Origin: a virus
Lineage: Monodnaviria; Loebvirae; Hofneiviricota; Faserviricetes; Tubulavirales
Virus record (IMG/VR): IMGVR_UViG_2579779084_000001
Length of the DNA: 6,758 bases
Direction: 5' to 3' (one strand)
Numbering within the stretch: position 1 is the first letter of the stretch; each line of letters starts with the position of its first letter. The notes beneath the pieces are model-generated. The model saw nothing but the letters and a program-made list of their open reading frames with translations. It searched no databases and was not told the origin of the DNA. Below are positions 1 to 6,758 of the stretch, one piece after another. The translations under genes and the position numbers were made by a program.

Positions 1-1956
<1,956 letters not shown>

Positions 1957-1972
1957 CTGAATTTTTAACATT

Positions 1973-1978
1973 GAGGAG
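1973..1978 (+). promoter_or_regulatory. Shine-Dalgarno site (GAGGAG) for the CDS starting at 1987
   Basis: GAGGAG lies 8 nt upstream of the ATG at 1987, immediately after the Rep stop codon. Confidence 0.6.
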
Positions 1979-1986
1979 TCTGATTT

Positions 1987-2412
1987 ATGAATCAAATTTA
2001 TGACAGTTTTCCGTTTCCTTCCCCTGAGGGTTTTACTGCAGGTATGACAATGGCGGGATTTTTTATTCACGCCACTGTCATAAATGATGAGGAGTTAAAA
2101 CCCACGGGTTCTCATTATAACCCTGAGGCTAAACCCAAATATGCCATTGTTATTGGCTATCCGTATGAGGACCGAAAATTAAAAGTCCGCCGTGAGGAGC
2201 ATGAGCGATTTTCCTGTACTGAGGAGGATTTTAAATTTTTTAATTCATGTCCTGATTTGCAGGGCAAACCTGTTTATCTCACGGTGGATGTTAACTCATG
2301 GTCGACAGGCTCTGAACGTCATGGTGTCTGGTATCGTTTTATTTCCGGCTCCATGAAACGTTTTGACGGTCAGCCGCTGGGTGCACTGCCCGCAGGTAAA
2401 GAAAAAGGCTGA
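1987..2412 (+). CDS. Hypothetical protein in the gV (ssDNA-binding protein) position of an Ff-like gene order; function not established
   Basis: 141-aa ORF with ATG start and strong SD, directly between Rep and the small coat-protein genes. No obvious similarity by eye to M13 gV. It is longer than gV (87 aa) and its basic/aromatic C-terminal half (KPKYAIVIGYPYEDRKLKVRREEHERF...HGVWYRFISGSMKRFDG) would be compatible with a nucleic-acid-binding beta-rich fold. The functional assignment is inference from synteny only. Confidence 0.6.
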   Translation: MNQIYDSFPFPSPEGFTAGMTMAGFFIHATVINDEELKPTGSHYNPEAKPKYAIVIGYPYEDRKLKVRREEHERFSCTEEDFKFFNSCPDLQGKPVYLTVDVNSWSTGSERHGVWYRFISGSMKRFDGQPLGALPAGKEKG

Positions 2413-2416
2413 TGAT

Positions 2417-2557
2417 ATGTCTGACGCTGATTTTCTGAACTTTGTTTTATTTGCTGCGCCTGCAATGATTTTATTTTCTTCAGGTTTTGGCATCGGAATA
2501 AAACTGATTCGCGCCTGTGACTCACAAAGCATTACTGTTCAGCGTTATTATGACTGA
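2417..2557 (+). CDS. Small hydrophobic minor coat protein, pVII-like (46 aa)
   Basis: ATG at 2417 lies 4 nt after the upstream stop; the ORF-track start at 2363 is a TTG. Product MSDADFLNFVLFAAPAMILFSSGFGIGIKLIRACDSQSITVQRYYD has a short acidic N-terminus followed by a hydrophobic helix, resembling M13 pVII (MEQVADFDTIYQAMIQISVVLCFALGIIAGGQR), and sits in the same genomic position. Confidence 0.5.
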   Translation: MSDADFLNFVLFAAPAMILFSSGFGIGIKLIRACDSQSITVQRYYD

Positions 2558-2720
2558 ATTTGATTTCAGCGGTGTTTTATCCGCACTGAATTCTGGCGTA
2601 CAGGACGGGGAGCTTTACTGGGCCGTTCTTTATGTCTGGATTGTCTGCTGGCTTCTTGGCTTTGGTCTTGGTGTTATTTTCACTCTGGTCTGCCGGATGT
2701 TCAGCGATGCTGTTAATTAA
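2550..2720 (+). CDS. Small hydrophobic minor coat protein, pIX-like (56 aa)
   Basis: ATG at 2550 overlaps the 3' end of the preceding gene (stop at 2555-2557), suggesting translational coupling. The ORF-track start at 2517 is a GTG and is less likely. Product MTEFDFSGVLSALNSGVQDGELYWAVLYVWIVCWLLGFGLGVIFTLVCRMFSDAVN has a single hydrophobic transmembrane-like helix. Position matches gIX in Ff. Confidence 0.5.
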   Translation: MTEFDFSGVLSALNSGVQDGELYWAVLYVWIVCWLLGFGLGVIFTLVCRMFSDAVN

Positions 2721-2726
2721 TTTTAA

Positions 2727-2987
<261 letters not shown>

Positions 2988-3002: not shown

Positions 3003-3025
3003 AGCGCCCTTCGGGGCGCTTTTTT
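3003..3025 (+). terminator. Rho-independent transcription terminator downstream of the major coat protein gene
   Basis: Perfect GC-rich hairpin AGCGCCC-ttcg-GGGCGCT followed by a run of six T. Same placement as the strong terminator after gVIII in Ff phages. Confidence 0.8.
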
Positions 3026-3029
3026 AATC

Positions 3030-4445
3030 ATGCCAGGAGTGTTTTGCTTGATTCGTTTTATTATTCCGCTTCTGTTTTTGTTCTTTTCTTCGCTTTCTTT
3101 TGCTGAGGGGAAAGAAAATCCGGATGAATTTGTTGAGTGTTTTGGCCGTTTATCCTGCAGGACAGCTTATTCAGACGCGGGGACATCGATTAAATTAGCC
3201 AGGGGAGCAGGTCATGTTTATTGTGGCTGGGCCAGTGTTGATGCATGTTCCGGAATAATTCATTATTGCGGCGACAATCCTTCAAAGGTTTCTGCCGCAC
3301 CTTCTACCGTTGGGAATTTTGTTTCTGCCAAATGGCATGCATATAAAGTCTGGGATTTAGACAAGCAAGAGTGGCAAACCTGCGCCCTTGCTTTTCAGGG
3401 AGGTGAGGGTGATTTGACACCTGAATATAATAAGCCGGTTACCGAAGAAAATTGTCTTTCCCGTCCGGTAATTAAGGACTTTTCATATTCTCTTGGTGAT
3501 GTTGTCTGGGTTGATACGGGTAACGGGCAGGAATCTCAGTCCCTGGAAATTAATGGCTGTCGTTATTTGATTGATTTTAACGAGTGTGATGACGACGGGA
3601 ATTGTATCGCTCAGAGTATGCGTTCTGTTGGCGTGGCTGTCGCCAATAAAAATCCTGACGACAATACAGGGAGTGGCTCTGGTTGTGACGACGACAATTG
3701 CGATAATACGACAGGCTCTGGCGGTTCATCCGGCAGTGGTGGCTCCGGCTCGGGTTCCGGCGGCTCATCCGGCAGTGGTGGTTCAGGTTCTGGCTCCGGT
3801 GGTTCATCCGGTAGCGGTGGTTCAGGTTCTGGCTCCGGTGGTTCATCCGGTAGCGGTGGCTCCGGCTCGGGCTCCGGCGGCTCATCCGGCAGTGGTGGTT
3901 CAGGTTCTGGCTCCGGTGGTTCATCCGGTAGCGGCGGTTCAGGTTCAGGCTCCAGTGGCTCATCCGGCGATAACAATGGCTGGCTTGATGGTGTTTTGGG
4001 CTGGTTACAGCGTATTTGGGTTTCAGTGAATGATTTGAATAGTTTCTTTTCTTTTTCTCAGGCTGATGTAAATAACTCACTGAATACTTTTGATGGCCAG
4101 CTGTCTGATATTGTTAAAAATGAATCGGGGGATTCATCAAATGATTATGATTCTTTAATCTCTGAGTTTATTGATAAGCTACCTAAGGAGTGGTTATTTA
4201 TTGATTTCAACAAGTTATTTTTTCCTGGTAATCATCGTTCTGATGGGGCTCAGCCACTTGAGGTTGATTTTTCATTTTATCTTCCGGTGATTGGGACTGT
4301 ACATTTTACAGTTGACACATCCGATTTTTCATCAGCTTATGATTTGTTGTTAAGGCCTGTTCTGGAATATTTTATTTATGCACTTACTGTTTTTCGTCTT
4401 TATTTTGTTTATCGTCGCGCCCTGATGCGTCATGCTGAGGTTTAG
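3030..4445 (+). CDS. Minor coat / adsorption protein, pIII-like (receptor-binding protein with Gly/Ser-rich linker)
   Basis: 471-aa ORF. Hydrophobic N-terminal signal sequence (IRFIIPLLFLFFSSLSFA), a Cys-rich N-terminal region of about 200 aa, a long Gly/Ser linker (GGSSGSGGSGSGS repeated), and a C-terminal region with a hydrophobic anchor (YFIYALTVFRLYFVYRRALM). This is the domain layout of inovirus pIII and the position matches gIII. The real start may be the in-frame TTG at 3048, which lies 8 nt downstream of AGGAG at 3035-3039. Confidence 0.8.
   Translation: MPGVFCLIRFIIPLLFLFFSSLSFAEGKENPDEFVECFGRLSCRTAYSDAGTSIKLARGAGHVYCGWASVDACSGIIHYCGDNPSKVSAAPSTVGNFVSAKWHAYKVWDLDKQEWQTCALAFQGGEGDLTPEYNKPVTEENCLSRPVIKDFSYSLGDVVWVDTGNGQESQSLEINGCRYLIDFNECDDDGNCIAQSMRSVGVAVANKNPDDNTGSGSGCDDDNCDNTTGSGGSSGSGGSGSGSGGSSGSGGSGSGSGGSSGSGGSGSGSGGSSGSGGSGSGSGGSSGSGGSGSGSGGSSGSGGSGSGSSGSSGDNNGWLDGVLGWLQRIWVSVNDLNSFFSFSQADVNNSLNTFDGQLSDIVKNESGDSSNDYDSLISEFIDKLPKEWLFIDFNKLFFPGNHRSDGAQPLEVDFSFYLPVIGTVHFTVDTSDFSSAYDLLLRPVLEYFIYALTVFRLYFVYRRALMRHAEV
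3714..3968 (+). repeat. Tandem repeat, 39-bp unit, about 6.5 copies, in-frame within the pIII-like gene and encoding (GGSSGSGGSGSGS)n
   Basis: Direct reading of the sequence: near-identical 39-nt units with synonymous third-position variants (ggctccggctcgggttccggc versus ggttcaggttctggctccggt). The ORFs on the opposite strand and in other frames across this region are repeat artefacts. Confidence 0.9.
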
Positions 4446-4810: not shown

Positions 4811-6025
<1,215 letters not shown>

Positions 6026-6105
6026 GACAGAAGAGATACCGCTCGCCGCAAGTTTATGACCGAACGTAGTGAGCGAATAAACGAGGAAGCGGAATGTCTT
6101 CATGA

Positions 6106-6758
<653 letters not shown>

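Follow-up and report, generated by a model that had tools for sequence, protein, structure and literature searches.

A candidate OB-fold single-stranded DNA-binding protein encoded beside the replication initiator of an Escherichia coli filamentous prophage

Filamentous phages already are known to use diverse proteins for binding single-stranded DNA (ssDNA). The 87-residue gene V protein (gVp; PF02303) of the Ff phages is a small cytoplasmic β-barrel protein of the oligonucleotide/oligosaccharide-binding (OB) class which is without a helix between strands 3 and 4. Its gene is situated between that for the replication initiator (Rep) and a group of coat genes, comprising two tiny ones and that for the major coat protein, gene VIII, after which a terminator is located. 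In CTXphi, the RstB protein (PF07459) combines ssDNA binding with a role in integration and is paired with RstA in an exchangeable replication module of two genes, of which its own is the second. The phages fs2 and VFJ and the Shewanella phage Dolos instead possess a 104-residue protein (orf104 and Dolos SSB, respectively; phrog_5738) that is encoded directly after a GPA-type Rep and is annotated as an ssDNA-binding or V protein. Bacterial SSB proteins, whose OB domains are grouped with those of mitochondrial SSB and PriB in the PF00436 clan, bear an acidic C-terminal tip that recruits partner proteins. The subject of this study is an open reading frame (ORF) for a 141-residue protein in a 6,758-nucleotide stretch of DNA assigned to the Tubulavirales (IMG/VR record IMGVR_UViG_2579779084_000001), which is referred to in its entirety as the window. 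The ORF lies immediately downstream of a gene for a GPA-type Rep.

The 141-residue protein probably adopts an OB fold of the SSB/PriB type and serves the phage as its own ssDNA-binding protein, as the functional counterpart of Ff gVp and of CTXphi RstB. The assignment derives from fold prediction and comparative genomics, from which DNA binding, its cooperativity, an oligomeric state and any role in packaging or integration are inferred. The function is probably the one expected from the position of the gene, with the sequence family being new and unannotated. The initial annotation of the window had raised the possibility of a divergent or novel ssDNA-binding or packaging protein, which is supported by the OB-fold model, by co-inheritance of the gene with rep, by its replacement with rstB in one pair of prophages, and by the lack of another candidate in the prophage.

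The ORF is a real gene that is under purifying selection. An ATG-to-TGA frame is preceded at 8 nt by a Shine-Dalgarno sequence (Table 1), in keeping with the strong ribosome binding site mentioned in the initial annotation, and the distance from the stop codon of rep to the ORF is 30 nt. The identical ORF was called by the Prokaryotic Genome Annotation Pipeline (PGAP)/RefSeq in a 98.7% identical prophage as WP_032239044.1, a "hypothetical protein." Pairwise ratios of nonsynonymous to synonymous substitution rates (dN/dS) calculated against six relatives were 0.12–0.24, and homologs of the protein extend down to 23% identity.

The DNA of the window belongs to a filamentous prophage integrated in E. 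coli, with its genes in an Ff-like order. Window DNA was detected in the chromosomes of 42 of 5,426 complete E. coli genomes, 18 of which carry at least 80% of the stretch. The best match was in E. coli AST205 (98.7% identity, full length), in which tandem copies of the element, each a unit of 8,578 bp, adjoin hipBA. Up to 19 partial matches to the prophage are evident in AST205, and the prophage occupies several chromosomal places per genome. The genes are ordered as GPA-type Rep, the 141-residue ORF, ORFs of 46 and 56 residues, coat-like, gIII-like, gVI-like and Zot/gI ORFs, and the start of a secretin gene, which matches the order II/X-V-VII-IX-VIII-III in the f1 record. Thus, the previous assignment of the ORF to the slot of the Ff ssDNA-binding protein gene is borne out. 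A terminator-like hairpin is positioned directly after the coat gene, and therefore the stretch from rep through the 141-residue gene and both small ORFs to the coat gene is interpreted as one unit as in Ff. At the DNA level, the window was matched by none of the deposited phage genomes, and the 141-residue gene had neither a DNA nor a protein match in deposited phages. The closest gI proteins showed ~33% identity (fs2-type Vibrio phages) and 31% identity (f1).

Rep and the 141-residue gene are strictly linked and are exchanged together as one module. Each of the 36 member-carrying loci that were retrieved has the family gene just 3′ of a GPA-type rep gene, wherever upstream sequence was available, with at most one small ORF (57–111 residues) between the two. 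The identities of Rep and the 141-residue protein among relatives decrease in parallel: approximately 99/98, 97/94, 92/84, 61/58, 44/35, and 35/23%. By contrast, gIII and gVI are mosaic even among near-identical relatives. Three loci place the 3′ border of the module in the last codons of the 141-residue gene. In locus L021, 99.4% identity extends over window positions 1–2405, which is seven bases before the stop codon, and is followed by an unrelated, different morphogenesis module. In locus L026, 88.8% identity over positions 1–2370 is followed by loss of similarity except for one short, weak match to gI. The third locus, metagenomic contig L003, carries two adjacent filamentous prophages (774–9265 and 10687–13787) whose DNA shows 95% identity as far as the Rep region and 91% identity from the final ~27 nt of the slot gene onward, but which possess different replication cassettes between these points. 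One cassette comprises a GPA-type Rep with P0023, a 131-residue member of the family, whereas the other comprises Rep_trans with RstB (PF07459, E 5e-26). The GPA-type rep copy in this contig is interrupted by an IS21-type element (IstB/rve). The 141-residue gene thus completes an exchangeable replication cassette that begins with rep, and takes the position occupied elsewhere by rstB or gene V. Paired exchange of replication modules, RstA/RstB against gII/gV, has been described in Xanthomonas phages (bioRxiv 10.1101/2023.12.30.573655).

The parallel with CTXphi therefore comprises a precise swap at the same position of a two-gene module, and both types of phage are found at dif-like sites. RstB differs in its pairing with RstA, which belongs to another Rep family, and in the lack of sequence similarity. 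In E. coli AST205 (locus L001), a dif-like site (AGTGCGCATAA-11 nt-TTATGTTGAAA) and a second, inverted dif-like site flank a GC-rich hairpin at positions 4834–4925 and 13412–13503. These pairs are situated at the junctions of the prophage units, outside the window. The arrangement resembles that in CTXphi in which paired attP sites are folded in the phage ssDNA for XerCD-mediated integration. The exact E. coli dif sequence is absent near the prophage in the AST205 stretch, in which only dif-like variant sites were found.

The protein is predicted to be cytoplasmic and to adopt an OB fold. Template-free AlphaFold2 modeling with 21 sequences, among them members at 23–46% identity that were recovered in an exhaustive HMMER search, produced a model with a predicted local distance difference test (pLDDT) score of 73 and a predicted template modeling (pTM) score of 0.66, and four of five models scored 68–73. 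The model consists of strand 1 (residues 21–31), a long, variable loop (32–51), strand 2 (52–62), strand 3 (67–77), a helix (79–86), strand 4 (95–101), a loop (102–115) that includes the invariant Trp-105 and Gly-113, and strand 5, which starts at residue 116 next to the Trp-115/Tyr-116 pair. The strand-strand-strand-helix-strand-strand topology is the canonical OB order with the helix between strands 3 and 4. Foldseek searches of the PDB with the model placed mitochondrial SSB, SSB and PriB on top (best E 2e-3, probability 1.0, TM 0.4–0.5), and the matches in BFVD were mainly phage SSB proteins, including that of the filamentous Thermus phage OH3. Hence, the structure prediction for an OB fold that was suggested alongside the initial annotation gave a positive outcome both in topology and in the OB-fold ssDNA-binding proteins that are the nearest structural neighbors. 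The N-terminus (MNQIYDSFPFPSPEGFTAG) shows no hydrophobic signal sequence as judged by eye. Residues that are invariant or near-invariant in family alignments include Phe-16, Gly-24, Phe-26, Lys-49, Lys-51, Lys-64, Val-96, Trp-105, Gly-113, Trp-115, Tyr-116, Arg-125, Asp-127, and Gly-128, and the conserved aromatic and basic residues are plausible candidates for DNA contacts.

The predicted structure shares with Ff gVp the character of a small cytoplasmic β-barrel of the OB class, but is distinguished by an additional N-terminal arm, by longer loops, and by a helix that separates strand 3 from strand 4, as is typical of SSB and PriB. It most resembles the SSB/PriB OB domains, which provide the best structural matches and with which it has in common the order of strands and helix and a Trp residue after strand 4. 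These similarities are scored at the level of the fold only: SSB and PriB were not matched in Pfam, NCBIfam or PDB sequence searches or by profile. Furthermore, the C-terminus of the 141-residue protein, which ends in LPAGKEKG and varies across the family, is without the acidic tip of SSB type (DDDIPF).

Several observations weigh against the assignment as an ssDNA-binding protein. First, known families of this kind were not detected by sequence. No match to PF02303 (Phage_DNA_bind) was found in the window protein or in the 14 members that were scanned, and hhalign comparison of the family profile with f1 gVp was not significant (E 0.22), as anticipated in the initial annotation which saw no recognizable resemblance to M13 gV. 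Comparisons of the profile with RstB (E 0.35; no PF07459 match in a Pfam scan), with fs2 orf104 and Dolos SSB, neither of which was significant, and with E. coli SSB (E 0.44) gave similar outcomes. The non-significant E. coli SSB alignment sets invariant Trp-105 opposite Trp-88 of SSB. Second, the fold rests on a single shallow alignment, as modeling with 14 close E. coli sequences gave an unusable result (pLDDT 36). Third, the protein is mildly acidic overall, with an isoelectric point of 6.1. The C-terminal half was initially described as rich in Lys, Arg, Tyr, Trp and Phe, but is not distinctive in this respect: the numbers of Lys plus Arg, Asp plus Glu, and Phe/Trp/Tyr residues are 8, 9, and 10 in residues 1–70, and 9, 10, and 10 in residues 71–141. 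Fourth, two paralogous Ff gVp-like ORFs (5529–5963 and 5945–6280; phrog_1199, "single strand DNA binding protein," E 3.5e-7; sub-threshold PF02303 match, E 0.028) lie downstream of the family member in the Xenorhabdus-type prophage at locus L005. This coexistence means that the member is not always the only candidate and leaves room for a distinct Rep-linked role.

The gVp-like ORFs in L005 are inserted between two genes for small membrane proteins. They are missing from four of the five Xenorhabdus-type loci, all four of which retain the family gene, and loci L035 and L036 preserve only the last ~20 gVp-like codons directly after the stop codon of the family gene. The family gene therefore is constant among these loci, and the gVp-like genes vary in their occurrence. 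In the prophage under study, the other annotated proteins of the 8.6-kb element had no match to a DNA-binding family (Pfam for all proteins, PHROGs for the window ORFs), and its remaining products are assigned to the membrane or to structural roles, except for three small regulator-like paralogs. Apart from Rep and these putative regulators, the 141-residue protein thus is the sole candidate DNA-binding protein in this prophage, as are the corresponding proteins in most of its relatives, with L005 adding the gVp-like ORFs.

The protein belongs to a very small sequence family that is without functional annotation. A word-indexed search of 5.8 billion proteins returned 17 clusters, all named members of which are E. 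coli "hypothetical protein" entries. When 1.84 billion representative proteins were searched exhaustively with an HMMER profile, only nine were retrieved at E ≤ 0.001; two further profile rounds added three clusters and then none, the last with the widest profile. The sole PHROG matched by the protein was phrog_30648 (function unknown; full length, E 4e-94), and NCBIfam contained no meaningful match for the family. The gene family is present in 48 of 5,426 complete E. coli genomes (~1%), frequently in multiple copies and in up to 11 per genome. Members also are carried by two large plasmids, OV141394.1 of Citrobacter youngae and NZ_ON390810.1 of Proteus mirabilis, and one further member is in a bacterium with a cbb3 oxidase. 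A Xenorhabdus member was found with a narrower alignment, the first scan of representative genomes having given none.

Two other groups of proteins bear comparison with the family. The fs2, VFJ and Dolos proteins occupy the same position directly after a GPA-type Rep, but at 104 residues constitute a separate, unrelated family to which there is no profile similarity. The PF17426 (Putative_G5P) family also accompanies rolling-circle replicases, and residues 85–122 aligned with the C-terminal part of its profile in 11 of 14 close members. These matches, the only ones that the family gave in Pfam, are sub-threshold, reaching at best 14 bits (E 0.006–0.06) compared with the Pfam gathering cut-off of 25 bits; the window protein scored 14 bits (E 0.057) and the best member had an E-value of 0.006, whereas distant members gave no match. 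PF17426 genes adjoin Rep_1 rolling-circle replicases on small plasmid-like circles (PMC10378824). A member was sought on the Acinetobacter plasmid p4ABAYE, none of whose ORFs matched.

The foremost alternative is that the protein is an OB-fold accessory factor of GPA-type Rep instead of a packaging protein, with the sequestration of ssDNA performed by something else. Possible roles for such a factor are handling of the origin or nick site, PriB-like priming of the complementary strand, a switch from double- to single-stranded synthesis, or Xer-mediated integration of ssDNA only. The strict link to one type of Rep and the co-divergence with it fit this explanation, as do the inclusion of PriB among the best structural matches, the paired dif-like sites in the prophage, and the coexistence in L005 of a family member with gVp-like ORFs that are nearer to the coat genes. 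However, it would leave this prophage and nearly all of its relatives without an ssDNA-binding candidate, including the four Xenorhabdus-type loci that have the family gene without gVp-like genes. Moreover, fs2, VFJ and Dolos have a GPA-type Rep together with an annotated SSB at the very position in question, and the cassette that takes the place of the family member in L003 carries RstB. We consider an accessory role of this type to be rather unlikely. A related reading, in which a Rep-specific OB-fold factor has a job of its own, is distinctly unlikely. Such a factor might, for example, deliver the displaced strand of a GPA-type rolling-circle replicon to the Xer recombinases of the host, so that ssDNA is integrated at dif, or recruit components of the host replisome through the conserved N-terminal D-x-F-x-F..P-x-G-F and C-terminal F-D-G-x-P-L motifs, and would account for the coexistence with gVp-like proteins in L005.

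It is highly improbable that the protein is an unrelated accessory (moron) product that acts on the host or on other phages, for instance as an exclusion factor or a sugar-binding OB fold like that of the AB5 toxin B subunits. Annotation of the family solely as hypothetical is compatible with this proposal, but AB5 toxin B subunits are secreted and the protein has no signal peptide or hydrophobic N-terminus as judged by eye, its gene belongs to the constant core in association with rep and is not variable cargo, and most of the top fold matches by far are nucleic-acid-binding OB folds. The chance that a VxNSW...G.WY motif marks a degenerate fragment of a papain-like (C1) peptidase is close to negligible and this identity is regarded as noise and as effectively refuted: in PDB sequence searches the family profile matched aminopeptidase C chains at E 0.003, with ficin and cruzain weaker, but the signal dropped to E 0.55–3.5 with a profile of distant members, the alignments with the various peptidases lack collinearity, a conserved Cys/His pair is missing (P0023 has another residue in place of Cys-77, and none of the His residues is invariant), 141 residues are below the length that the fold needs, and the model is an OB barrel for which no peptidase was among the fold-search matches listed.

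If the 141-residue protein is the ssDNA-binding protein of the phage, the following sequence of events can be proposed. The GPA-type Rep would nick the replicative form, and rolling-circle synthesis would displace plus strands. The 141-residue protein, produced from a transcript shared with rep, would coat the displaced strand through stacked aromatic and basic residues of the barrel face and loops, with Phe-26, Lys-49/Lys-51, Lys-64, Trp-105, Trp-115/Tyr-116 and Arg-125 as candidates, and thereby prevent its return to double-stranded DNA. The complex of ssDNA and protein then would pass to the gI/gIV export machinery where the coat protein would replace the binding protein. As the prophage is at a dif-like site, like CTXphi, the protein also may protect ssDNA for Xer-mediated integration, a function that has been reported for RstB.

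The features of the window in the vicinity of the 141-residue gene are collected in Table 1. PGAP annotates Rep as a 666-residue protein that starts 45 nt upstream of the first base of the window, and the TTG codon at position 145 therefore is internal. Downstream of the unit that ends in the hairpin, the gIII-like ORF specifies a 471-residue Gly/Ser-rich protein, the Gly/Ser linker of which is encoded by a tandem repeat with periods of 39 and 117 nt at positions 3712–3968. Mosaicism affects gVI and the N-terminal portion of gIII, as observed among prophages that otherwise are 97–99% identical. The gene for the gIV-like secretin (PF00263) begins near position 6135 and is cut by the end of the window at 6758. 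Searches of Rfam revealed no RNA family in the window. Upstream of rep and outside the window, three paralogous ORFs of 60–70 residues are located on the minus strand at positions 5130–5841 of L001. Their products share the pattern I/L.E.(S/G).KTG.I....E.V.H.I.NYL, which by eye is similar to that of ribbon-helix-helix regulators, and have no Pfam match.

Table 1. Coordinates of the 141-residue gene, its parts and its neighbors in the 6,758-nucleotide window.
Feature	Position	Strand	Evidence
Replication initiator (GPA/HUH rolling-circle endonuclease type), 3′ 1.96 kb	1..1956 (stop 1954–1956)	+	PF05840 Phage_GPA E 5e-49; phrog_91 "nicking at origin of replication" E 7e-129
Shine-Dalgarno sequence GAGGAG	1973..1978	+	Read from sequence; 8 nt 5′ of ATG 1987
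Coding sequence of the 141-residue protein	1987..2412 (stop included)	+	ORF list; ATG 1987, TGA 2410–2412
N-terminal arm, residues 1–20	1987..2046	+	Conserved D-x-[FY]-x-[FY]..P-x-G-F (D6, G15, F16); modeled at pLDDT 49–61
Predicted OB core, residues 21–125	2047..2361	+	Secondary structure of model m82e4ab3646c4
Conserved F-D-G-x-P-L (D127, G128, L131), then variable Pro/Gly/Lys tail, residues 126–141	2362..2409	+	Alignment; pLDDT 57, then 36 over residues 131–141
Module boundary	2371..2412	.	DNA similarity to near-identical relatives stops in last codons of 141-residue gene
46-residue ORF, small hydrophobic, gVII/gIX position	2417–2557	+	ORF list; PGAP call
56-residue ORF, small hydrophobic, gVII/gIX position	2550–2720	+	ORF list; PGAP call
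Major-coat-like ORF	2727–2987	+	ORF list; PGAP call; weak coat-protein PHROG matches
Strong terminator-like GC hairpin (AGCGCCC-TTCG-GGGCGCT) and T-run, directly after coat gene	3003..3020	+	Consensus scan

The general understanding of how filamentous phages work is unchanged by these data. Instead, a hypothetical protein of Citrobacter, Proteus, Xenorhabdus and ~1% of complete E. coli genomes gains a function that can be tested. The protein probably adds another sequence-unrelated family to those that filamentous phages use for the sequestration of single strands, and its gene serves as an annotation marker for the replication module in an inovirus lineage of E. coli for which there is no deposited phage genome.
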